Below are positions 2,674-30,047 of a stretch of 41,016 bases of DNA, piece after piece. Numbering within the stretch: the first letter of the stretch is position 1; each line of letters starts with the position of its first letter. Where the stretch lies: NCBI GenBank assembly GCA_900128585.1, contig LT642179.1:1-41016 (forward strand), in the 5' to 3' direction. This DNA comes from Stramenopiles sp. TOSAG23-3. Taxonomy: Eukaryota. The notes beneath the pieces are model-generated. The model was not told where the DNA came from. It did no database searches and saw only the letters and a program-made list of their open reading frames with translations. Position numbers and translations under genes: made by a program.

Positions 2674-5600
2674 TCACAGTTTCTTCTGCACCCCCCTTCT
2701 TCTTGCAGATCGTGGCCTAGCAGATTTAGGCCGCGGTTTTTTGCCACTAGACCCTATAATTGGCAAGCTCTCGGTCTCGTCTTTCCTTGCACTCTTGCTC
2801 CCAGAAAGGGGCAAAGCAAGGCTGTTTCCTTTTCCCGCTGCTGCATCGCGTGGAGTAGTAATCATGCTCTTAAGGAATTTGCTCATGTTCTGTTCAATCG
2901 TGCGAGCGTTGTCTGTGTCTCGCTGCAAGTGATCAAACTTCCTCTGAAGAACAACTAAGCTCTTCCGCTTCGCCTCCAGCTCTTCCTTCATGGATCTATT
3001 TTCTCGCTCTAAACTTACTGCGTTCTTTTCGCATCGCTTCAACTCATGCCTCACGGACATCTCTCGCTCCTCTGCTTGGGTGGCTGCCCGCACCGCCTCC
3101 TGCCTGGCGACTTCCATCGATTCTACCTGCTTTCGCATCGAGCCAAATGCTTTATCGTTGACCTCGTCCCCCGACTGCAATTCATTCTGCAAGTCTTCGA
3201 TCGTCTTAACGGCGTTGGCCAAAAGTGACTGGGTCGTTTGCAGTTTTTCCCCCACCTCGTTTCTCTCGTCTTCTACCCGTTGAATTTCGTCGCTTAGCTC
3301 TTTCATTCGCCCTTTAAAGGCAAACACTTGCTGCGCTGCTTCGTCATTCATTTCTTCCAGCTCCTTCGTCAATTCTTGGTTAGCCTCTTTAATATTTTTT
3401 GATTCCATGTTTTTGGTTTCCATCCTTTCCACCAGCTCTTCCGTTCGGTTTCTAAATTTTTCACCGAATTCTGTTGACGCTTCAAGCTCCGACTGAAGCG
3501 TTTCAACCTCTTTTTCGTGTTCTTTCTCCATCTCCGCATTTTTGGCCTTCAAGACTTGCTCGGACTTCATTCTCTTTTTTAACTCTGAAGTCACCTCTTC
3601 CAGCTTTGTGAGCGTCGCCTCGAGCGACCTCCTCGATTTCTCGCACATTTCCTCGCTGCTTTGGAAGTCGGCGCTTGTGGTTTTCAGCGACTGCTTTAAA
3701 TCTATAATTTCACGCTCCATTTTCCCGTTGGCCTTTGTGGTATGGACGAGTTTTTCTTCAAGGCTGGCCATCTTGTTTCGAGAATCATCAACCTTTTTGT
3801 TTGCTTCCATCGCAACGTTTTCCACCTCCTCTTTCATTTTTTCTTCCATTGTTTTCTGCTTCTGAACCGACTGCTTCAACGATTTTTCAACGTCCAAGCA
3901 CGCTACACGTGCGTTCTCTGCGACTGCCCGCAGGGTTCGGTTCTCTTCTTCCATTTCGCGATTTGCTTTTTCCAAAGCAGAAATTTCCTCCGCCTGCCTT
4001 GAGAGTTGGTTCGTAGCGTTGGCTACCTTCTGTTGAAGGCGTTCTGTCTCATCTTTAAACGAGCTCACCCCTTTCTTCATTGCCTTGTTTGATTTTTTGA
4101 GTTCCTGGATCTTCTCCCGCTCTGCCTTGAGGTCATTAATATAATCTTTAACCCGGATCTTGCCGCTCCTGACCTCCTCTTCCATGCTTGCAGCGAGTCG
4201 GTCTTTTCTCTTCATCTCTGCTCTGTTGGCCCGCAGCTGTTCCTCCTGGGCATTTACTCGTTCAGTTTCTTCTTGAAATCGCTCTTGCAGGGACATGTAT
4301 TTGTTTTCCATGGCTGAAAAGTTTTCCTCTGCTCGTTCTGCGCGTTCAATTGCACCCTGAGTGCATTGTTCTGCGTGCCTGCAATCATCAATGGCCTGCT
4401 GCGAGGCCCCCTTTTCTTTGAGGTACTTGTCGTTTGCTCGCTGAAGCTCTGATCGGAGGTCGGCCATCTGGTTCGAGTGATCGTGCTTCAGACTTGAGAT
4501 CTTACTTCTCAGCTCAATCTTCTTCACGCCTTCCTGGTCCAGCGCCTCCTGTAGGGCAGATACTTCTTCCTCCAGAACCATCTGGTCCTTTTGGACGGAC
4601 TGGCCCCGTACACGAAGCTCTTTTAGTTCAGCCTCGGCGCCCCGAAATTTGGTGGCAATTTCAGTTCGGCCCGCGTCGCACTCTTTCAGTTCGTTCACCA
4701 AACGTTTCAGGTGACCTTCCATCTCGGACTCGTTGCTGCGCATAGCTCTCATCTGCCCCTTGGAGTCAGAGAGCTCTCTCTCTATCTCGGCAGCGCGAAC
4801 ACTTAGTTTGTCGCACTCATTTCTCGCATCCTCCAAGAGCTTGGACTCCCTGTCCCCTGTCGATTGGGACTCCTCCAATCTGCTGGTCAACCCCATGATC
4901 GTCTGGCTTTGCGAATTGATTTGCGCGCTAAACTTATCGCGTTCGGACTTCGCACGTTCCTGTACTTGGCGGGCGCGCGACCTTACGTTATCCAGCGCGT
5001 TTCTCATTCCTGCAATCTCGTTGGTGATGGTTTCGTTGGATTTTTTCAGCGCGAGTAGTTGTGCACGGCTCTCGGACGCTTGCCGCTTTGCCTCCGCAGT
5101 TTCGTTGCGTGCTGATTGCAACTGGTTTTTGTATGCATCTAAATGGTCTTTCATATTTTCTGTTTCGCTCTGCATTGTTTGGTGCAGGTCCCACGTTTGC
5201 TGCAAATGCTTCAAGAACACTTCGCTACTTGCCCCATGAGTGGAAAGAATTCTATGAGAAATGTTCGTACCTGCTTGGGCCGCGCCGTCGGTGGACGGGC
5301 TGGAAGCAAGGCTCCCGCTTGCGCGGTGCGTCGTTGCCTCGTTCGCTACTTGCCCAGGCCGGCTCGTGCTGGTGAAGGGCATGCCGGACGGAGTTGGGGC
5401 AGAGGCGTGGGGAATATTCACAACGTTTTCCGGGATGGTTGGAGGGCTACGATGCCGCGTTGGCGGGGGGACGGGGGGAGTGTTGTGGCGCTGCCGAGAC
5501 GCCATCCTGGTGGCCTTTTTGGATTTTGATTTTTGAGAAGAGCTCCCGTTAGACCCTTTGGAGAGCGTCGGCTGTTTGTTCCGCTTGCCGCCACCGTATT

Positions 5601-5763
5601 TTTTGGTCATATTCCTCTTCTTGCGATTCCCATCGTTTTCTTTGTTCATATTAAGCTGAATACTGCTCAACTGACTGTTTGCTTCTGCAAGCTGCGCCTC
5701 CAACGCCTTTTTTTTGCGCAGAATTTCTTCCTCGGAAGTTCGATGAGGGGGTTGACTGTACAT
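2674..5763 (-). CDS. Long coiled-coil protein of unknown function (1029 aa)
   Basis: Uninterrupted ATG-initiated ORF. Basic/Pro-rich disordered N-terminus followed by about 780 aa of E/K/R/Q/L-rich heptad sequence; no globular domain recognised. Confidence 0.85.
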   Translation of the reverse strand: MYSQPPHRTSEEEILRKKKALEAQLAEANSQLSSIQLNMNKENDGNRKKRNMTKKYGGGKRNKQPTLSKGSNGSSSQKSKSKKATRMASRQRHNTPPVPPPTRHRSPPTIPENVVNIPHASAPTPSGMPFTSTSRPGQVANEATTHRASGSLASSPSTDGAAQAGTNISHRILSTHGASSEVFLKHLQQTWDLHQTMQSETENMKDHLDAYKNQLQSARNETAEAKRQASESRAQLLALKKSNETITNEIAGMRNALDNVRSRARQVQERAKSERDKFSAQINSQSQTIMGLTSRLEESQSTGDRESKLLEDARNECDKLSVRAAEIERELSDSKGQMRAMRSNESEMEGHLKRLVNELKECDAGRTEIATKFRGAEAELKELRVRGQSVQKDQMVLEEEVSALQEALDQEGVKKIELRSKISSLKHDHSNQMADLRSELQRANDKYLKEKGASQQAIDDCRHAEQCTQGAIERAERAEENFSAMENKYMSLQERFQEETERVNAQEEQLRANRAEMKRKDRLAASMEEEVRSGKIRVKDYINDLKAEREKIQELKKSNKAMKKGVSSFKDETERLQQKVANATNQLSRQAEEISALEKANREMEEENRTLRAVAENARVACLDVEKSLKQSVQKQKTMEEKMKEEVENVAMEANKKVDDSRNKMASLEEKLVHTTKANGKMEREIIDLKQSLKTTSADFQSSEEMCEKSRRSLEATLTKLEEVTSELKKRMKSEQVLKAKNAEMEKEHEKEVETLQSELEASTEFGEKFRNRTEELVERMETKNMESKNIKEANQELTKELEEMNDEAAQQVFAFKGRMKELSDEIQRVEDERNEVGEKLQTTQSLLANAVKTIEDLQNELQSGDEVNDKAFGSMRKQVESMEVARQEAVRAATQAEEREMSVRHELKRCEKNAVSLERENRSMKEELEAKRKSLVVLQRKFDHLQRDTDNARTIEQNMSKFLKSMITTPRDAAAGKGNSLALPLSGSKSARKDETESLPIIGSSGKKPRPKSARPRSARRRGVQKKL

Positions 5764-12323: not shown

Positions 12324-13727
12324 TCAGGGCGTGCTTGAGCGTACGAATTTTATTCCGTGGTATAGGAACCCCCCCGGGGTTGTATGGACGCCATCGTTCG
12401 TGTAAACTCGCGCAGCACACCTGTTGCTTTTCGCCGGGGGTTGCGACTCACTAATAGTCAACGAATCCTGAAAGGCCCTGTGGGGAATGGTTGGTGGAGC
12501 TAAGTTTGTTACCATCGTCTTGAAGGTGTCTAGTTGAAGGGAACCAAAAACGAAAACTTCGTCAGAGGAAGAATTTTCGGCCTGGGCTGTACCTTCTGAT
12601 CTCTTGATCAGGGAAATAATGCAGCTGCCCTTGCACTTAATCTGAAACAGGTCGTACACGAATTTGTTGTCACGGTGCGACTTCGACCTTTTCTTGCCAT
12701 CCTCCCGCTTCAACCTCTGCTTCGAATCTTTTGATCGCAAATGAGGGTGCTTCCTCTTTACGTAAGAGTCCCACGCTTTTGCAGAAAACGTGCCGCTAGC
12801 AACGTACATATCGAATTCGGTTGAGACTAGCTCGGAATAGCTGTTGCTGTCCAAACGATCGGGACGTACTTTCCACGCTCTGCATACCATCCCCGGTCCA
12901 GTGCAAAACAGCTGCGGAAACGTGTCTTCAAAGCACCATTGCAAAGACTCCATTTTGTTCGCTTTTCCCTGCAAACGGTCAGGAATATCGATTTTGTTAT
13001 AGGAGCCGTCGGGATTCAAAATAACTGCCACTGGGCTGGTAGAATCTGACCCCAGTGGCTTCATGCCCAGCCCGCCCCCTTCGACTGCGGCAACTGTTGG
13101 TTTTACGGGCTGCGCCTGGTCGATTCCCTGAAACCGCTCGCCGGCTGCTTTCTTATACATTACATACCCCTTGTTTCCCGTGGAAAGCTGGGGTTGAGAA
13201 CCAAGGGTCTTTAAGGCAGCAGACATTTGTTTGCTGCGATGACGGCTACCTTTCCAAGAGGACGGTGCGCGCAAGGATTGCGGTGGCGCAGTGGGAGTTT
13301 CCCCCCAACCCCTTCCCCCAGAAGAGCTGGGAGTTTCCCCCCAACCCCTTCCCCCAGAAGAGCTGGGAGTTTCCCCCCAGCCCCCTCCCCCGGAAGAGCT
13401 GGGAGTCCCCCCCCAGCCCCCTCCCCCGGAAGAGCTAGAAGTGCCCCAGCCCCCTCTGCCAGGGGTTGTCGACGCTGAATTTTCTGGCGCTGTGTGTGGT
13501 CGGCCCCATCCCCCAACCGTCTCGTTGCCCCAAGACTGCTTGTTGCTGTTCGAATTGCCCCAACCTGAAGCGTCGTCTGGTGAGTTCCACCCATTATTAT
13601 TACTATTACGATTCCTACGATATTTGGTGTGTCCATTTCTCCTACCTTGTCTGTAATTTGAGTTCCGAGAGTGTCCACCATTTCCCCATCGATTGCCCCC
13701 GTTCCAGGGCCCACCACCGTCGTTCAT
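12324..13727 (-). CDS. Hypothetical protein with N-terminal GW/WG-repeat region and unassigned C-terminal globular domain
   Basis: ATG at 13727. Ten Trp residues in GW/WG context within the first ~145 aa; the C-terminal ~240 aa have mixed hydrophobic, globular-looking composition. Confidence 0.8.
   Translation of the reverse strand: MNDGGGPWNGGNRWGNGGHSRNSNYRQGRRNGHTKYRRNRNSNNNGWNSPDDASGWGNSNSNKQSWGNETVGGWGRPHTAPENSASTTPGRGGWGTSSSSGGGGWGGTPSSSGGGGWGETPSSSGGRGWGETPSSSGGRGWGETPTAPPQSLRAPSSWKGSRHRSKQMSAALKTLGSQPQLSTGNKGYVMYKKAAGERFQGIDQAQPVKPTVAAVEGGGLGMKPLGSDSTSPVAVILNPDGSYNKIDIPDRLQGKANKMESLQWCFEDTFPQLFCTGPGMVCRAWKVRPDRLDSNSYSELVSTEFDMYVASGTFSAKAWDSYVKRKHPHLRSKDSKQRLKREDGKKRSKSHRDNKFVYDLFQIKCKGSCIISLIKRSEGTAQAENSSSDEVFVFGSLQLDTFKTMVTNLAPPTIPHRAFQDSLTISESQPPAKSNRCAARVYTNDGVHTTPGGFLYHGIKFVRSSTP
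13293..13452 (-). repeat. Coding tandem repeat, 36-bp unit, ~4.5 copies (WGETPSSSGG[R/G]G)
   Basis: Units start at 13293, 13329, 13365 and 13401 on the + strand (gggagtttccccccaaccccttcccccagaagagct and variants). Confidence 0.95.
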
Positions 13728-17615: not shown

Positions 17616-19254
17616 TTATAGATCCTCTCCTCCTTCCTGTCGAATGTATTGCATGGTGAAAAAAGGTCTTTTTTTTACCGATTTGATATAAGAAACAACC
17701 TGTTCAAATGGCATTGACGCGATGCTTTCCCTGTTGACGTGGGTCAGGCGATCCCCCAACTTCAGATCGCGCAAGTTCTGCCTGGATGAGTCTACCGAGG
17801 TTACCACGATGACCAAACTATTTGTGGTTGTGTCCAATGCGTTGCCCAAACATATTCCAATGGATCGGTCACTCTTCGAGTCTATGGAGACCATGATTGC
17901 TTCTGGACGTTCGGGGTTGTTGCCATGGTTCGCAGCATGGCCACCGCTGTGGTTTCTGCTACTTTCCAGCGTTGGTGGTTGGGGAAAAGAAGAGAGCAGG
18001 TCGTCTTGCTCCACCAGGAATTCATCCTCGAGCACAAACGGTTGGTAGGCGGTGGCAGGCGGGTGCTCTTTTTGTTGGTCTTCTTTCGGGCGCTCGTGTT
18101 GGCCTGCATTCTTTGCACCCACGGCATCGGAACCCAGCTTAAATTTCTTTTTCCGCTTTCTTCGCTTCTGCTTGCTCCGTTTGGTGGAGAAAATGTTCGC
18201 CATGACCTTGTTTCGCTGCAGTCTTGAATTCTTCTCCCGCAATTCTATCCGGCTGTTGACTTTGTACCAATCCTTCTCCCCGCGCTCTACCCCACCCTTG
18301 TCTCTATTGCCGTCTGCCAGGCCTTTTCTGAGCAACCTTACGTTTAACAAACACTCTTCTACCGCCTCTTCGAGGTCAGGGTGAATGCGAATCTGGCCTT
18401 CGTTCGCGTCGATTAGAAGGCACGTTACAAGAAATGCAGACACTGCAAGGTTGCGAACTTTCGCTTCGTATTGATTTGCCTTGGCGCCGCGCCGCAAGCT
18501 CTGCTGGCACCGAAACGCGAAGCTTTCCCTCCCACAAACGTAAAGTATGGCCACGATGGTTTCCCAGCTAAAGAACCTTACTGCCGTGACCAGCCGATGG
18601 ATATTAAACGAGCAAAACGTTAGTCCCGTTTCGCGACCTTTCTCCAAGTAGTTGACCCGGGCCGATAAGAGGACGTGTTGCGTCTTGCTCAATTTAAAGC
18701 CTTTCACGTAGACCCTCTCAAATGGCAACCCAATGTCTTTGTTTTTTTTTCGGGCAAACCTTTTGCGGCGCTTCTTTTTGTTGTTGCCTAAATATGACCC
18801 GTATTTTCCAAGGATCGGTGTCAGCAACTTTCGGTGGATGTCCTTCTGGGAAGGCATCCCTAGCTTGTAGGCGCGCAACTCGCGACGGGTTTTAGGAGAT
18901 CGGTCTGGAGACCTGGACGATTTGTGCTTGGTGTCTTTCAGGCCATACTTCGTGGGGTTTTTGCCGCCAGTAAGGGGAACTTGGGTGAAATTCACCCAAT
19001 TGCGCTTCGTCCTCTTCGTGCTCGTACATTGTGACTTGGCTCCTTGAGAGTCCCCCCAACGTTGCACCGGCGTCCTCCTCCTCCTCCGATGAAGAATAGT
19101 CGCTTTTCCCATGACGGTGGGAAGAGGGCGAGTGCAAACCGTACAGTGTTGCACCTTCATCCCAGTGTTCTTCATCTATATCCTGCAGCTCATAATTAAT
19201 CGGAATCATGTCGTCCCCGGACAAATAGAAAGGATTTGTATCAGTACGCTCCAT
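17616..19254 (-). CDS. PDZ-domain protein whose reading frame is split (+1 shift near 18892-19000)
   Basis: C-terminal PDZ (SIGICL..IVVTSV..LKLGDRLTHVNRESIASMPFEQVVSYIK). The acidic ORF 18892..19254 begins near the edge of the GC-rich block and looks like the true N-terminus, overlapping ORF 17616..19175 in another frame. Confidence 0.7.
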
Positions 19255-23657: not shown

Positions 23658-25643
23658 ATGCCGGAATACAAACTTCTGTATGGTAAAATGAACGTCAAAA
23701 ACGATCCAAAGAAGATCGTTTTGGGGAAGTTCGTCAGCCATAATGGTGAATACGATGGAACGCCAATGCCCAAGTTCGACAGCATGGACCAGCCACTGAA
23801 GATGTTTTCGAAGAAAATCGATACAACGAAAATCAACGCCCCCAGGATCGTGATATCTGTGAAGCCTTACGGAAGCAACGACAAAGTAGTGCAAACCACG
23901 ATCTCCATGGCGGACACGATCAACAAAACCGTGATAGGCTGCCTTGTGCTGATGGCAGACACGGTCGTCCAGGAGGCGAGCGGGCCGCAGGACCGTGGGT
24001 ACGAGCATTACTTCAAGCACCTGGAGAAGGCGCACCGGATGCTGCCAGAAAAGGTTTTGTCCATGTTGCGGGAGAAATTCCCCGGTTGGTCGAACTCGTT
24101 GGAAAAAGCAGGGGAAGTGGCGGATGAGGCCGACTACGATACCCCCGTCCTCGCATGGCTCTGTCTGCCCGATGGTGGCTCCTTCTACCACCCGTTCAAG
24201 GCGTTGACCGATTATGTGATAGACGAAGAGCAGGAGGTTCGGTTTTCCTTGCGCACTGAAAAGCCGAAACGGCCGCACCGGAACAGGACAAACATGACGC
24301 GCTTGGGGAAAGAAACCCGCTGGTTTATTTCGGATTCGAACGGCAAGGAGAAGTTTCAAGGGGAGTACGAAAATTCCGACGCCGCCCAATCCTTTATCCT
24401 CCAGCTGGATCATAAGAACCTTATTGCGCGCATCCTTCCCATTGAGACGTGCTACAGGTTTGAAGTTTCCCGCGAAGGTGCGTCCGACACTGTTGCGAAT
24501 GCCTTGATCGAGATGGAGAAGGCCAAGAAGAAGCGCCAGGAGGAGCACGAAATGTTATGGGGATCTAAAGACAAGGGTGCGGGCAGTAGAAAAGTTAGAG
24601 CCAAGTCCGATAGGAGGGCCAATGGCGTCCCCCTGAACGTTCCGATGAACAGGTTCACGGAGGCCTTGTTTGGTCGGCGCGGCAAGTCCAAGCCCAAACG
24701 AGAGGGCTTCAGCGTAACAAAAAAGAGCTACCGAACGAACGACAACGTCGTCAAGAAGAAAAGGAGGGATCAAATTGACTATGATTCTGAAGACCGAGAA
24801 GAGGAAGAACGAGAGCGGCAACAGAACAACACCGAGGAATTCACTGGTCTGTTAAGAGACGCGGGCGCGGAACAATGGAAGCTGATGGAAGATCTGGACT
24901 ACCAGTACGATCGATCCGACGACGATGGGGATTTTGGCGGCGAAGACAACGCGGACAACGCAGAAGCAGGGTTCGACGATGATGACCTCTTTGGGGATGA
25001 TAGCAGCGATTCGGATTCCGGCTCGGAGTTGGAAGAGGGCTTTCGCCGCCGAAAAGTTGCCGAGTTGCCTAGCAGCGACAGCGATCAGTCTGCCAGCGAG
25101 TCCAGCGGCGACAGCGATCTGGATGTGAATGAATTTCTTTCTGCGCACTCTACCTACAAACGGATAGCAGAGAAGTTGGAAGAAAGGAATGCCGAATCGA
25201 AATCGGAGCAGGAAGCCGAACCTTCAGCACCCAGCGATTCCACCAAGCAGGTCGCCCAGCGTTCGCTGGACAATGCTGAAGTGAAGCAAGAAAACACCGC
25301 CGCCGCAGGCGGGAAAAGGAAACGTGAGGTAGAGTCCGCGGTAGCAGGGACGGCACCACAGAGTGCTGTTTCTCAAGCAAGCAGCGATGGGCAGAAACCA
25401 GCGAAACGTAGGAAAAAGGTGAAGAAGAAGAAGGCCAAGGTAGAGGAGGTGGAGTTGAACGAGGAAAATTGGCTTCGTATACTACGCGAAAACGGCGGCC
25501 GCATGGATTTCAGTAAGCTCTTGAAACACTTTCGTGACATTCGTGGCGCGCAAAACAAAGCTTTAGTCAGGTCGTTAAGAGATCGGTGGTGTGACGAACC
25601 TGTGAAGGTTGGAAAGAAACACTTCATTGGTCTGAAACAGTAA
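23658..25643 (+). CDS. GTF2F1: Transcription initiation factor TFIIF subunit alpha (RAP74/Tfg1)-like
   Basis: MPEYKL..IVLGKF N-terminus; WFISDSNGKEKFQGEYE..SFILQL..ILPIETCYRF resembles the RAP74 dimerisation domain; acidic DLDYQYDRSDDD linker; C-terminal winged-helix-like LNEENWLRIL..MDFSKLLKHF..HFIGLK. Confidence 0.78.
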   Translation: MPEYKLLYGKMNVKNDPKKIVLGKFVSHNGEYDGTPMPKFDSMDQPLKMFSKKIDTTKINAPRIVISVKPYGSNDKVVQTTISMADTINKTVIGCLVLMADTVVQEASGPQDRGYEHYFKHLEKAHRMLPEKVLSMLREKFPGWSNSLEKAGEVADEADYDTPVLAWLCLPDGGSFYHPFKALTDYVIDEEQEVRFSLRTEKPKRPHRNRTNMTRLGKETRWFISDSNGKEKFQGEYENSDAAQSFILQLDHKNLIARILPIETCYRFEVSREGASDTVANALIEMEKAKKKRQEEHEMLWGSKDKGAGSRKVRAKSDRRANGVPLNVPMNRFTEALFGRRGKSKPKREGFSVTKKSYRTNDNVVKKKRRDQIDYDSEDREEEERERQQNNTEEFTGLLRDAGAEQWKLMEDLDYQYDRSDDDGDFGGEDNADNAEAGFDDDDLFGDDSSDSDSGSELEEGFRRRKVAELPSSDSDQSASESSGDSDLDVNEFLSAHSTYKRIAEKLEERNAESKSEQEAEPSAPSDSTKQVAQRSLDNAEVKQENTAAAGGKRKREVESAVAGTAPQSAVSQASSDGQKPAKRRKKVKKKKAKVEEVELNEENWLRILRENGGRMDFSKLLKHFRDIRGAQNKALVRSLRDRWCDEPVKVGKKHFIGLKQ

Positions 25644-25790
25644 TTTAGGGTGTCTGTTGAGACATCTCGAGTATCTTATCATATCATATGAATACGTGCA
25701 ATTTATGTGTTCAAAATGAAAAATTTAAGATTAAAATGCTATGGTCCATAATTTAAAACTGAAATCTTAGGACAGCCCTTTCTCTCTCTT

Positions 25791-28700
25791 TCACTGAGGG
25801 ATTTTTTTCCCACCACCCTTGCCCTGCTCTTCCGCCTCCTTTACAGTACTAATGATCATACTTTTTGCAATTTCAATTTCCGCAGGGGTGCCTTTCATCG
25901 TAACATCCACAGTTTTCCCTTGCCCGCCGGCTTCACCCATGATGGCAATGCTGGCACCAGATTGTATCTCAAATTCTCGAATATTACTGAAACCTTTCCC
26001 TACAATAGTTCCAACCATGTTTTCTGGCAGGTTCAGGGAATCTTCTACGATGGCACCTTCTCGCTCCAAAATGGTTGACATTAAAATTTCTTTTGCTGCC
26101 TTCGTTCTCGTCAATGGCCCAGTTATTGAAAAAGTCCTCCAATGCTCTTCGTCCGCCTCCACACGAGGAAGCAGTTGAATCGTGGTTTCCGTAGAGTCCG
26201 AAATTCCATACACAACTTCCCCACCTTTTCCAAGCAGGTAGCCGACATGTTCCCGAGGAACCTTCAGAAACGATTCGTACGACGACGATTCGATCTCGTT
26301 AAGCTTCCGGACCAGTTGATCTTTCGCGGCTTTTATTTGCTGTGGTGTTCCCTGAATCTCGACGTGATTTGCATGCCAGTCAGCGTCAGTCTTGCTAATG
26401 ACAACTCGCGTGGCACCAGAACGGGAGCGGATTTCACGCAAATGCCGTCCTCCTACTCCGGTAATCTCCCCGATCCGATCTTTTGGAATACGCACACGCA
26501 CTGCTTTTTGACCATCTAGACTCGCTATAGTATTTTCGAGTTCTTTCACCGCTTCTTGCACCGACGATCTCTCTCCATGAACCTCTATGCTTTCCCCTCG
26601 AATGAGAATTTTTGTTTGCGTCTGTTCTTGGAGGCGCCGAATATGTTCCCCACTCTCACCCAGCAAAGCACCGGCAAGGTGCATTTTCCCAGCAAGCTGC
26701 AGCTTCTCAGTACTGAGGTCCGTGTTTTCTAGCAATTCCTGGATGCTGTCGACGGCGACGGCGACTTGCTCGGGGGCACCGTATGCCGTCAGGGTCTTGC
26801 TCCTTTCGTCCATGCCAGACTGGGAAAGTAGAAGTATTGTCCCAGTCTCAAACGATATACGCGAGAGCAAGTTCGACCCCCTGTCCTGGTCCCCATTCAT
26901 GTTGCCCATCAAAAGCCCAGTTCCAGCAACGGGGATGTCCACCGAGGCACCCTTCGTTGCCATGCTTTCCTGGGAAATTGCTAGCGCCTTCGACTTTATC
27001 AAGCGCTCTGCATGTTGCACCTGGTCCGACGGGCCCGCCAACGACAATCTTCCATTGTCGTACGAAATGGAAGCGCCCGTAAGATAATGCAAAAACTTCA
27101 TGTTGTTCCCGCCCCGACCAAGGATCTGCCCAATGGCATCGCTGGCCACCAACATTTCAGATCTTGTAGTGTCTTCGGCATGCTTGGAACGGCGTGAAAT
27201 ATATTCCCTTACATCGTCAATTACACGCTCGCTCGCGCCACATATGTTCACGTCCGTCCCCGAGGACGACATGTCTGTGACAGCACCAGTCCACCGGTGG
27301 ACGGTGGCCCAGTCGTAATCTACCCCGGGCACTAGGGCGGCTGTGCTTTCTATGCCAGGCTTGTTCACGTGCCTGTCGACAATGGTGTCAACACGGCGCT
27401 TAGCCTCGGTCATTTCGTCCACATTACCATAAAAATATACGGCATGGGAGGAATCACCAGAATCCACCACCGACGTCTTTGCACCAGTCTTGTCCACCAA
27501 TCGTTTGAGCCCAGCCCCGGATTTACCCACGACATACTTTATCAAGTCATTCGGGACGCGCACGGCCGTATCGGAATGCGCCCGGAGCCATTTGGAAACC
27601 CCCTTGATGTTTTCTCGAAGCCCGACCGCCTTCGTCGCGGTGGGGCCGTCCTCATCGAGCAGAGCGACATCGAAGCGTTCCAGCAGATATTTTTTCAACC
27701 GCAGCACAGCGTTCTCATCCTGCGAATACTGAGGAATGGCGATCGAGCGCTTGCGGACACGCGAGAGGAAGGCGCCTTCCAGCTCTGAACTCGCCAGTTG
27801 TGGCTGTTTGCCTGGACCGACAAGGGTTGCACTTTGGCCATCCTCAGAAAATCTACAGCTAACGCCGTACTTTCTCAGCACTTGCCCGGCCTCGCCCCTT
27901 GCAACGCTGCCGCGCAACCATGAGGATGCGGAGTTCGAACCATCGAGCGTTAAGGCAGACTCCGATCGTAGAATCATAGCCATGGCCGAGGATACTTGGG
28001 CCCTTGACCCGTATATGTCGATGTGATTCACAGCGCCGCTCGCATCCCTGTCCGCGCTCAGGAAGGCTCCGCTGGAAGAAGCAACTCGGTTAAAATTTTT
28101 AAAATTTTTTCCAATCACTATTCCCGCATCCTCCTTTTCAACAGTGACGCGTTCGTAATGGAACTCTTTGTCGCCTGCCAAGCTTCCAAGGTAGTTTTCG
28201 GTCAGCGCGATGGTGTCCGGCGAACCAAACAACTCGATGGGCACCGACCCGTCGCCACTGGCTTTGCCTGTTACCATCAATAGGTCACTCTCCAAGTCAT
28301 CCAGGACTTGCCTTCGTACATTTCCCCCGGGGCCAAATATTGCTCCCACCATGTTTTCGGGAAGCTGCACTGTGGTGGAGGCAACCGACTCGTCTCCACG
28401 ACCGTAAACGGAAACCACCTTTTCGAATTCCTTCTTCGCGACCTCCACGTTCTCGCGTCGTCCCGAAATGTTAATATGGCACAGGTTGCCTGACTTGGGA
28501 TTTGAAACCTCTATTTTCGTGGACGTTCTTTGCCTCAGCTGTGCCATGAGGCGCTTGAAACCAGCGCGAAGCTGCACGGTTTTGATAGTTTCGGCGTCAA
28601 CAACGAGCTCGGGCCTGACACGGCGTTTTCCGGTAGACCCCTTCGCGGACACGATGGCATCGGGGACAACCTGGCGCACCAAGCTTTCGGGCAAAGCATA

Positions 28701-29465
28701 AGTCGTCGGTATGAGGCCAAACTGCCTGGCTTGTTTCACCGCCCGGGCCAATTGGCGCTGTTGCTTGGCCGTCAAGCCAGTGACTCGCTTGGGTTTGATT
28801 TTTCCAGAGGACCATAAAAACTTTCTCAACGTGGCGACGTCGGTGGGAGAGAAGCCCCCGGCGGGAACATGCTGCTGGTATTCCGGGGCTTTTCCACGTT
28901 CGTACGCAGCGTGCTTGGCATCTTTTTCCGCTGTGAGCTTCTTCTTCCTTAGCTCCCTCAGGACCCGTGGGTTAACGTCCATTTTGTAACGAAGGAGACG
29001 ATTTTGGTAGTCCGGGTCTCCTCGCAGCGCCTGAGACGCCGTCGTCAGGACTCTGATGCCCGAGAGGGGTGTGGCAGCTTTGGAAGATATGCTCTCCTTC
29101 GCATTCTCGAGGGTGTCTTCGGAGTCCACAACTTCTGCCGACACCTGGGGCGGAGCACTCGTCTCCCTCGTCTCCCCCCGTGCCGTGTCTTTATTCCAGG
29201 TTCCAAAAACTTCGTCAAACTGTTCTGGGCTTTCCCCGGCGACGTCGCCCTCGCCCTCCGTGGTTGTCCCCGTCCCGGAGGGGCCCTCGTCGCCGTCACC
29301 TGTGCTGCTGAAACACCTAAACGACGCAGGACCCCCACCACTGTTGTTCCCAGGACCGAAGCATGCGCTCTTAAACGCACCGTTTCGTTTCAAAAATGGC
29401 ATGCATTGTTTGCACTGAGCCGCTGCGCTCTTCTTTGCCAATGAAAAGGTACGTACGGTGTGCAT
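25791..29465 (-). CDS. Putative mitochondrial protein: ribosomal bS18 domain fused to ~13 KH repeats (1224 aa)
   Basis: N-terminal basic/Ser/Ala presequence-like region with no acidic residues, ending RCFSS; S18 signature [47 protein letters not shown] loops IFGPGG, VIGKNF, VVGKSG, ILGRGG, LLGESG, ITGVGG, LLGKGG, IVGKGF. Confidence 0.88.
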
Positions 29466-30047
29466 TGGGCCGGTGTGTTCGCGCTGTCCACAACTGTCGA
29501 CGTGTTCTTCCTGCGTACTTTCTTCGGTAGTTGGTTTAACTTGCCCAGTTAATTGTAAAAAATCGATGGTCAGTTAATATATTTACGTACTCACTTCTGT
29601 TTGTTAATTAGTTACTTGTGTTTCTTTTCGCAAATCTTAATGTCTTTCTTTTTTGTTCTTTCTTTGTTTAGTTCTTCATTCATTATTTGTTGTAGAGCGA
29701 GTAGTTCTATCTTATTTTTTATAAAAAATAATAATAATACGTAGAGGAGACGAATAAAAAAAATTGTTTTTTTTAAAACTTTTTTTATTTTTTTTATTTA
29801 CTGTAGTACAGTATTATTATTAATTTTATTTTATTGCATTATAGTACATTATGCCTTCTTCTTCTTTCTTCATCATCATACCGTATCATCATTCTAGTCG
29901 TCTTTCTTCTTTGTCTTTATCTCTTATCTACTGGTAGGAATAGTACGACGTATTCCAGTGGAAGAATATAATTATTAAACGTGTACGAAGGAAATAGGAT
30001 AGAGATGGATGGATGGAGAGAGATAGGAAACGGATGGACGGACGGAG

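Follow-up and report, generated by a model that had tools for sequence, protein, structure and literature searches.

The 41,016-nucleotide contig LT642179.1 of Stramenopiles sp. TOSAG23-3 (assembly GCA_900128585.1; this whole stretch is hereafter the window) carries on its reverse strand a gene, at positions 25791 to 29465, that encodes the core of a bacterial-type ribosomal protein bS18 followed, in the same 1224-residue polypeptide, by a tandem array of 13 KH or KH-derived units. Because conservation within this protein is highest in the S18 core, we consider it very probable that the product is the bS18 of the mitochondrial ribosome (bS18m), bearing a KH arm. Our best overall explanation goes further and has, in our estimate, about an even chance of being correct: that this bS18m of the mitochondrial small subunit carries an arm of ~100 kDa in which six to eight looped modules hold single-stranded RNA. 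The host is a marine heterotrophic protist whose closest relative with a name bears the label stramenopile MAST-4.

Identification of the bS18 core

Membership of the bS18 family was indicated both by profile (PF01084 and TIGR00165) and by alignment to the experimentally placed bS18 of E. coli. Pfam PF01084 (Ribosomal_S18) matched residues 208-252 with an E-value of 3.2e-17 and a score of 62.8 bits against a cutoff of 21, the score rising to 65.8 bits when the KH part was left out of the scan, and the NCBIfam model TIGR00165 scored 55.7 bits against a cutoff of 38.75. A preliminary description of this DNA had placed a bS18 core at about 28700-28860, lacking the Cys ligands of zinc-binding S18 proteins. 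Both points agree with our results, in that the Pfam match falls at nucleotides 28710-28844 and clears the curated threshold, and Cys is absent from residues 57-285. The core and the segment that follows it are as follows (pI, isoelectric point).

28686..28865, reverse strand: bS18 core, residues 201-260; Pfam match at residues 208-252, pI 11.5, no Cys
28611..28685, reverse strand: basic linker, residues 261-285; pI 12.0, an Arg cluster and then Pro

Alignment of residues 208-255 with E. coli bS18 chains extended over 48 residues (E 1.8e-11), and 79 PDB sequences matched the core at E<=0.01. Among the 60 matches listed, solved chains that are named bS18m matched less well than E. coli bS18 (8a22, E 2.5e-5; 9evs, E 3.2e-5). 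The core also showed the highest identity of all regions to three orthologues described below, P0003, P0004 and P0166 (88, 85 and 68%, respectively, compared with 46-79, 21-59 and 12-28% for the KH units), a pattern that fits a working core that binds ribosomal RNA (rRNA) and not a decaying relic. In the linker, the Arg cluster and Pro after the core are kept in all four lineages while the remainder is variable; the Arg cluster may form a tail that binds rRNA or mark a site of internal processing.

Collinear orthologues and RNA-library contigs

Judged from the sequence record, the fusion is genuine and not an artefact, because collinear proteins exist in three other lineages and because RNA-library contigs run through it without joints. 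A word-indexed search of 5.8 billion clusters returned three fused proteins and one KH-only protein. One of the fused proteins, P0002, comes from the same locus. P0003 (1223 residues) is 61% identical and collinear over its full length, and P0004 (1196 residues), which carries the EukProt label 'Stramenopile-MAST_4', is 40% identical in the search and 41% in alignments. A search with residues 80-290, aimed at shorter proteins, identified P0156, whose 90% cluster includes the most distant fused lineage, P0166, a protein of 1016 residues and 25% identity with a presequence-like N-terminus, an S18 match at E 1.5e-15 and a KH_1 match. P0003, P0004 and P0166 each carry the Pfam S18 and KH_1 families, and all four proteins align collinearly, so that the earlier proposal of a bona fide S18 joined to a vigilin-style KH array in one protein is borne out by orthologues at 61, 41 and 25% identity. 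A profile search with a three-sequence alignment found the same three fused proteins and one KH-only protein and no further fused members. The shorter members of the P0156 cluster (128-550 residues) look like fragments of one gene.

The exact window protein is present on five ENA contigs, and a 1224-residue member of its 90% cluster is present on a JGI contig; JGI pipelines call two cluster members 'ribosomal protein S18'. All or part of the stretch was held by 20 of the 24 public runs listed, which come from 13 studies, one of them possibly the source, and 18 of the 24 hold at least half of the sampled words. The gene was compared with contigs from four RNA libraries, each of a different study and one of them prepared with oligo-dT. 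In total, 21 contigs were used, all at least 99% alike; the contigs tile positions 25748-29564 without joints, and the gene is present in all four libraries. X6 record 13 (25774-28708) spans all 13 KH units and X8 record 20 (28567-29209) bridges the S18 core and KH unit 1, so continuity of the RNA-library contigs across the S18/KH junction, on which the preliminary description had depended, was upheld. Contig cover was missing at intergenic stretches, for example at 25696-25728 in all four runs and past 29565, from which we draw no conclusion. In the oligo-dT library, one contig (run X18; depth 3.1) shows a one-nucleotide deletion and a T>G change at 28784/28785 within the S18 domain, 46 nucleotides from the contig end, which probably reflects misassembly or variation between strains.

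Composition of the KH array

The C-terminal 939 residues were divided at repeat boundaries into 13 units, each of which was scanned singly with Pfam. Profiles of the units, built from the four orthologues, were compared by hhalign with column-shuffled controls, among whose 96 comparisons the lowest E was 0.038; the hhalign 'probability' was below 10 even between clear KH units, and E-values with the shuffled control were used instead. The units, in order from the N-terminal side of the array, are listed here.

28392..28610, reverse strand: KH unit 1, residues 286-358; no GxxG; KH_Vigilin 34.2 bits, KH_1 24.9 bits; beta-alpha-alpha-beta-beta-alpha in the full-length model
28170..28391, reverse strand: KH unit 2, residues 359-432; GPGG; KH_1 E 9.4e-4 and 19.3 bits, below the 21.5-bit cutoff; hhalign E ~1e-8 against unit 13
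27963..28169, reverse strand: KH unit 3, residues 433-501; GKNF; KH_1 30.1 bits
27744..27962, reverse strand: predicted KH unit 4, residues 502-574; GEAG, divergent; no Pfam match; best hhalign E 5e-4; full fold in the model, confidence score (pLDDT) 78.9
27573..27743, reverse strand: putative KH-derived unit 5, residues 575-631; no GxxG; no Pfam match; best hhalign E 2.5e-3, against unit 4; beta-alpha-beta-beta-alpha from the model only
27360..27572, reverse strand: KH unit 6, residues 632-702; GKSG; KH_1 34.4 bits; modelled
27174..27359, reverse strand: putative KH-derived unit 7, residues 703-764; no GxxG; no Pfam match; best hhalign E 8e-4; beta-alpha-beta-beta-alpha in the model
26958..27173, reverse strand: KH unit 8, residues 765-836; GRGG; KH_1 34.7 bits
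26718..26957, reverse strand: KH unit 9, residues 837-916; a long insert replaces the GxxG loop; weak Pfam match, E 0.039; hhalign E 1e-7 against unit 3
26511..26717, reverse strand: KH unit 10, residues 917-985; GESG; KH_1 36.6 bits
26286..26510, reverse strand: KH unit 11, residues 986-1060; GVGG, with GxxG in all four lineages; KH_1 46.1 bits; pI 10.6; the most conserved KH unit
26055..26285, reverse strand: KH unit 12, residues 1061-1137; GKGG; KH_1 39.7 bits
25818..26054, reverse strand: KH unit 13, residues 1138-1216; GKGF; KH_1 46.7 bits

Analysis of the whole protein gave a match to Pfam KH_1 (PF00013) with E 4.4e-77 over nine stretches. When the units were scanned singly, KH_1 was found at E<=1e-3 in nine of the 13 (units 1, 2, 3, 6, 8, 10, 11, 12 and 13), eight of which scored above the 21.5-bit cutoff. 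Profile-profile comparison showed unit 9 to be clearly KH, units 4 and 7 to be marginal and unit 5 to be without sequence support. Structure prediction added to this picture for the central part of the array. An AlphaFold2 model of residues 502-764, made with five aligned sequences, reached pLDDT 78.9 with a predicted global fold score (pTM) of 0.61; in it, units 4 and 6 have the order beta-alpha-alpha-beta-beta-alpha and units 5 and 7 are one helix shorter (beta-alpha-beta-beta-alpha). The full-length AlphaFold2 model was of low confidence (pLDDT 54, pTM 0.24, with the S18 part and unit 5 below pLDDT 50) and was used for secondary-structure order only; here the order beta-alpha-alpha-beta-beta-alpha is complete in units 1, 3, 4, 6, 8 and 10-13, unit 2 is partial and unit 9 is beta-alpha-beta-beta-alpha. 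Overall, ten units are KH by sequence, unit 4 is KH by predicted fold, and units 5 and 7 are KH-derived by predicted fold, without the GxxG helix pair.

Comparison of the 502-764 model with the PDB by Foldseek returned KH tandems as the top matches, led by IMP1 KH1-2 (E 2.9e-5) and followed by Nova-1, IMP3 and KSRP, with 22 matches at E<=1e-3. KH assembly factors of 90S/pre-40S particles and archaeal Dim2p on rRNA appeared at ranks 11, 21, 29, 36 and 37. The closest solved sequences to the KH modules are those of IGF2BP, FUBP, Nova and hnRNP K, and the modules are of type I, the eukaryote type.

The preliminary description had counted about 13 KH units, six with an intact GxxG loop, two with variants and about five degenerate, and our division reproduced this count with identical loop words. 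Canonical loops occur in six units (GPGG at residue 378, GKSG at 647, GRGG at 783, GESG at 936, GVGG at 1003 and GKGG at 1079) and near-canonical loops in two (GKNF at 452 and GKGF at 1156). The GxxG is retained in at least two of the three closer lineages in units 2, 6, 8, 10, 11, 12 and 13. Unit 11 is the only KH unit that is both strongly basic and universally conserved.

The N-terminus and the acidic extension

Two regions precede the S18 core.

29298..29465, reverse strand: presequence-like N-terminus, residues 1-56; no Asp or Glu, 8 Lys or Arg, ending F-R-C-F-S-S
28866..29297, reverse strand: acidic N-terminal extension, residues 57-200; pI 4.9, with the conserved block VFGTWNKDT and a second of 12 residues

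The N-terminus had been described as free of acidic residues for about 55 residues and ending R-C-F-S-S. Accordingly, the first acidic residue of the protein is residue 57, R-C-F-S-S occupies residues 50-54, and the preceding segment holds 10 Ser or Thr in addition to its basic residues; given 12.7% Asp plus Glu protein-wide, the chance of an acid-free run of 56 residues is ~5e-4. Mitochondrial presequences follow an R-3 cleavage rule, and an R/K-x-F/L-S/T motif is common to the N-termini of all four lineages (the window protein, P0003, P0004 and P0166). The segment thus has the composition of a mitochondrial presequence, and we infer import into the organelle. Targeting to a plastid was set aside by eye, the N-terminus having no hydrophobic signal-peptide-like stretch of the kind needed by stramenopile plastid proteins. 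The acidic extension also aligns with P0156 and P0166, with E 9e-29 jointly with the S18 core.

Gene structure and genomic setting

The coding sequence and its upstream stretch were delimited as follows.

25791..29465, reverse strand: complete intronless coding sequence (P0001), 1224 residues plus stop, one stop-free open reading frame (ORF)
29466..29564, reverse strand: 5' untranslated stretch of at least 99 nucleotides, without an upstream ATG; spanned by RNA-library contig X8 record 21 (29333-29564)

The uninterrupted 1224-residue ORF reported previously is thus stop-free throughout, and the ATG at 29465 is the earliest within the 99 upstream nucleotides covered by the RNA-library contig. 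The EukProt gene model P0002, from the same locus, has 1156 residues, and its first 14 are foreign to the window ORF, implying a predicted intron. Such an intron at the 5' end of the gene (29183-29564) is unsupported in that the RNA-library contigs are jointless there and P0003, at 61% identity, has the N-terminus of the window ORF; the automated model looks wrong at its 5' end. The S18-KH gene was the sole gene compared with RNA-library contigs, and no splice joint was observed in it.

The neighbouring ORFs are eukaryotic nuclear genes by their Pfam families (Arm, ankyrin (Ank), the dual-specificity phosphatase family DSPc, LRR/EF-hand, FKBP and lactonase), and in this eukaryotic context the S18-KH gene is, by its surroundings, nuclear-encoded. 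Four long ORFs in the window had no Pfam family at E<=1e-5: 2674-5763 (reverse strand, 1029 residues), 12324-13727 (reverse, 467), 17616-19175 (reverse, 519) and 23658-25643 (forward, 661). The last of these is convergent with the S18-KH gene, the stop codons lying 147 nucleotides apart. In 1-kb windows, G+C content is ~50-60% at long ORFs versus 28-43% between them, and long ORFs occur on both strands.

Occurrence and prior description

The fusion is known in four sequence clusters, and the window sequence occurs in marine metagenome and metatranscriptome runs. A full HMMER search of 1.84 billion representatives with residues 140-420 gave 881 matches at E<=1e-3, none of which reached E<=1e-10. 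The best 150 of these 881 comprised 139 S18-only and 11 KH-only proteins and none with both; since this library lacks the known orthologues, the result sets no bound on distribution. Among the 139 nearest S18 representatives, the longest tail after the S18 core was 141 residues, compared with 964 residues here. Searches of JGI metagenome contigs with two different conserved motifs gave 69 and 294 pattern matches, none of which was confirmed by tblastn, and the ESM Atlas contained the identical sequence, with no model and no usable neighbour, and yielded no additional members.

Neither an S18-KH fusion nor a mitoribosomal KH array was seen described in the literature that we searched, where we also encountered no stramenopile mitoribosome structure. 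The term 'KH domain' does not appear where it was sought in the main texts of PMC8998825, PMC7947838 and PMC7326499, whose supplementary tables could list such a protein. In the portions consulted of these three papers and of bioRxiv 10.64898/2026.10.06.756942, bS18m figures solely as a table row or in a remark on the paralogues mS40 and mL66, and here too supplements could hold tables. The novelty suggested earlier for this architecture thus stands in that the literature searched contains no description of it, but not in the labelling of its members, for automated pipelines already call orthologues 'ribosomal protein S18'. A mitoribosomal core protein with a multi-KH extension appears to be unprecedented and, from the clusters found, kept in a small group of lineages.

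Discussion

A bacterial-type S18 in a eukaryote serves an organelle, and we propose the following mechanism for the S18-KH protein. The basic, acid-free presequence would carry the protein into the mitochondrion, giving a mature protein with a computed mass of ~126 kDa and a pI of 6.9, of which the KH extension makes up ~101 kDa. The near-bacterial S18 core, judging from its family membership and conservation, would then bind the platform rRNA of the small subunit beside bS6, the place taken by every bS18. As described in excerpts from PMC7797042, PMC13000457 and PMC9976891, bS18 together with bS6 and bS21 lines a groove for the 3' tail of the 16S rRNA at the mRNA exit channel, with bS1, uS2, uS7 and uS11 nearby; this is where an arm attached to the bS18 C-terminus would begin. 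The 13 KH or KH-derived modules would hang from this C-terminus as a permanent arm near the mRNA exit and the rRNA 3' end of the small subunit. The six to eight modules with an intact or near-intact GxxG would most likely hold single-stranded RNA, the candidate ligands being the 5' parts of mitochondrial mRNAs, for which the arm would be a built-in, bS1-like recruitment platform, or the rRNA 3' tail, and modules without a loop may serve as spacers and protein contacts.

RNA binding by the KH arm is favoured by the retention of GxxG in seven units and by the nearest solved relatives, which bind single-stranded RNA or DNA. The more specific proposal that the KH modules capture mitochondrial mRNAs and thread them at the exit side, in the role of bS1 or of helical-repeat proteins, is plausible, but we advance it tentatively and regard it as somewhat unlikely. 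As an alternative core function, unit 11 may reasonably be supposed to make a conserved contact, perhaps with rRNA.

Several observations weigh against an RNA-holding arm on a mitoribosomal bS18m. A GxxG-type loop is absent from five of the 13 units of the window protein, seven units are acidic (pI <6), and the pI of the entire array is 6.15. In P0166, a long basic low-complexity linker takes the place of units 1-3 and GxxG is found only in unit 11, which means that much of the arm cannot be an obligatory RNA binder; taken together with the loop-less and acidic units, these losses imply that part of the arm must be a spacer or a protein-contact surface. The low-confidence full-length model is uninformative on how the arm is arranged. 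The RNA-library contigs establish presence and are not strict proof of transcription, as such libraries may contain DNA. Finally, a separate short bS18m gene may exist in the same organism.

Some of these observations would also be expected if the protein were in the mitoribosome but its arm mainly architectural, that is, a protein scaffold, an rRNA binder (for example, with unit 11 on the rRNA 3' tail in the manner of Pno1/Dim2), a part with an assembly role or a membrane tether. Units 1, 4, 5, 7 and 9 lack a canonical GxxG, P0166 has dropped units 1-3 and has the motif in unit 11 only, and unit 11 is the sole strongly basic, universally conserved KH unit; in addition, the fold matches include 90S/pre-40S KH assembly factors and rRNA-bound archaeal Dim2p, and, as far as the excerpts cited above describe it, a groove able to hold the rRNA 3' tail borders bS18. 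We nevertheless judge a mainly architectural arm to be unlikely, as the six canonical GxxG loops and the seven units that keep the motif in at least two of the three closer lineages are hard to explain without nucleic-acid binding, and the closest relatives by sequence and fold are KH tandems that bind mRNA or single-stranded DNA. A different possibility is that the product is a polyprotein precursor, cut in the basic linker after import to yield a small bS18m and a free multi-KH protein that share a presequence and a promoter. Mitochondrial fusion precursors that are cut internally by the processing peptidase exist, yeast Arg5,6 being an example, and the linker, which has a pI of 12.0 and in every one of the four lineages an Arg cluster and Pro behind the S18 core, could hold such a site; in P0166 it is long, basic and presequence-like. 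However, a basic tail after the S18 core is equally explicable as an rRNA-binding extension, a single functional chain would account equally well for the strict collinearity of the fusion across four lineages, and we consider cleavage into two products improbable.

The S18-like module could also belong to a non-ribosomal paralogue, in which case a canonical short bS18m would be encoded elsewhere and the module would be merely one more RNA-binding domain in a mitochondrial RNA-handling factor. Animals provide a precedent in S18 paralogues with new roles, mS40 and mL66 being paralogues of bS18m (bioRxiv 10.64898/2026.10.06.756942). Such a paralogue is, in our view, a poor prospect here, as no other part of the protein is as well conserved as the S18 core, which matches E. 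coli bS18 (E 1.8e-11) more closely than it does the solved bS18m chains among the 60 matches listed, and no second S18 of the same organism surfaced, though the searches could not assign hits by organism. It is far less credible still that the gene is an artefact in which neighbouring genes were misassembled together or a stop or intron was missed. The disagreement of P0002 (1156 residues) in its first 14 residues does show that automated models differ at the 5' end, but the same collinear ORF is found in four lineages, the exact protein on five ENA contigs together with the 1224-residue JGI cluster member, and at least half of the sampled words in 18 of the 24 listed runs (20 runs and 13 studies holding all or part of the stretch), and RNA-library contigs span the S18/KH junction without joints.

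A mitoribosomal bS18m with a KH arm can be compared with several known systems. Like bacterial bS18 and bS18m, the window protein has a core of ~50 residues that scores above curated thresholds, and like other eukaryotic bS18m it is nuclear-encoded with an N-terminal extension, many of the 139 S18-only matches being 200-374 residues long with S18 near the C-terminus. It differs from them in the 964 residues that follow the core and in its KH units, there being no KH domain in any of the 139 nearest. In the human mitoribosome, a metal or Fe-S centre with Cys ligands connects bS18m and bS6m, whereas the window protein is without such ligands.

The array itself resembles vigilin/Scp160 (HDLBP) as a long tandem of type I KH units with a period of ~70-75 residues in which canonical and GxxG-less units are mixed. 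The Pfam KH_Vigilin score of unit 1 (34.2 bits) exceeds the threshold of 27, and P0005, a vigilin-like protein, aligns in register with units 10-13 (hhalign E 1.4e-11, 26% identity). Vigilins act in the cytosol or at the endoplasmic reticulum and are not known to contain an S18 domain or a presequence. We rejected an identification as a vigilin orthologue: P0005, the only vigilin-like match, covers 17% of the query, and in the window protein the KH units are accompanied by an S18 domain and by an N-terminus that resembles a presequence.

Other comparisons concern the proposed role and site of the arm. Pno1/Dim2 and Krr1, which are among the fold matches, are KH tandems on the small-subunit platform, with Dim2 holding the rRNA 3' end; unlike the protein described here, they act transiently, in the assembly of cytosolic or archaeal ribosomes, and possess two KH domains and no fused ribosomal protein. 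mS39 is situated at the mRNA entry side. Both mS39 and LRPPRC-SLIRP, in the part of bioRxiv 10.1101/2022.06.20.496763 consulted, are lineage-specific additions that deliver mitochondrial mRNA to the small subunit or hold it there, as the KH arm might, but they consist of pentatricopeptide-repeat (PPR) helical repeats and are separate polypeptides. As a working analogy only, bS1 is likewise a chain of repeats that bind single-stranded RNA, located by bS18, bS21, uS2 and uS11 at the mRNA exit in the relevant passage of PMC7797042. Its repeats are OB-fold S1 domains and its binding, through uS2, is reversible, in contrast to KH units held covalently in a core ribosomal protein, and there is no sequence relation between the two.

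Mitoribosome lineages differ chiefly by added proteins, and how mRNA is found without Shine-Dalgarno pairing has been solved differently in each lineage studied. The S18-KH protein is a concrete candidate for the handling of mRNA or of the rRNA tail, and ~100 kDa of KH modules on a core platform protein predicts a large, as yet unseen density beside the mRNA exit. It also offers a clean example of a bacterial-derived ribosomal core joined to a eukaryote-type RNA-binding array, with the module loss in P0166 showing how such an arm evolves, although the small number of carrier lineages, four sequence clusters so far, limits its relevance. If the bS1-like role were correct, no core ribosomal protein with a multi-KH array would have been known before this one, mitochondria would have a third, independent way of recruiting mRNA, and the mitoribosome of a group of marine heterotrophic stramenopile-like protists would contain a built-in, vigilin-like mRNA platform.

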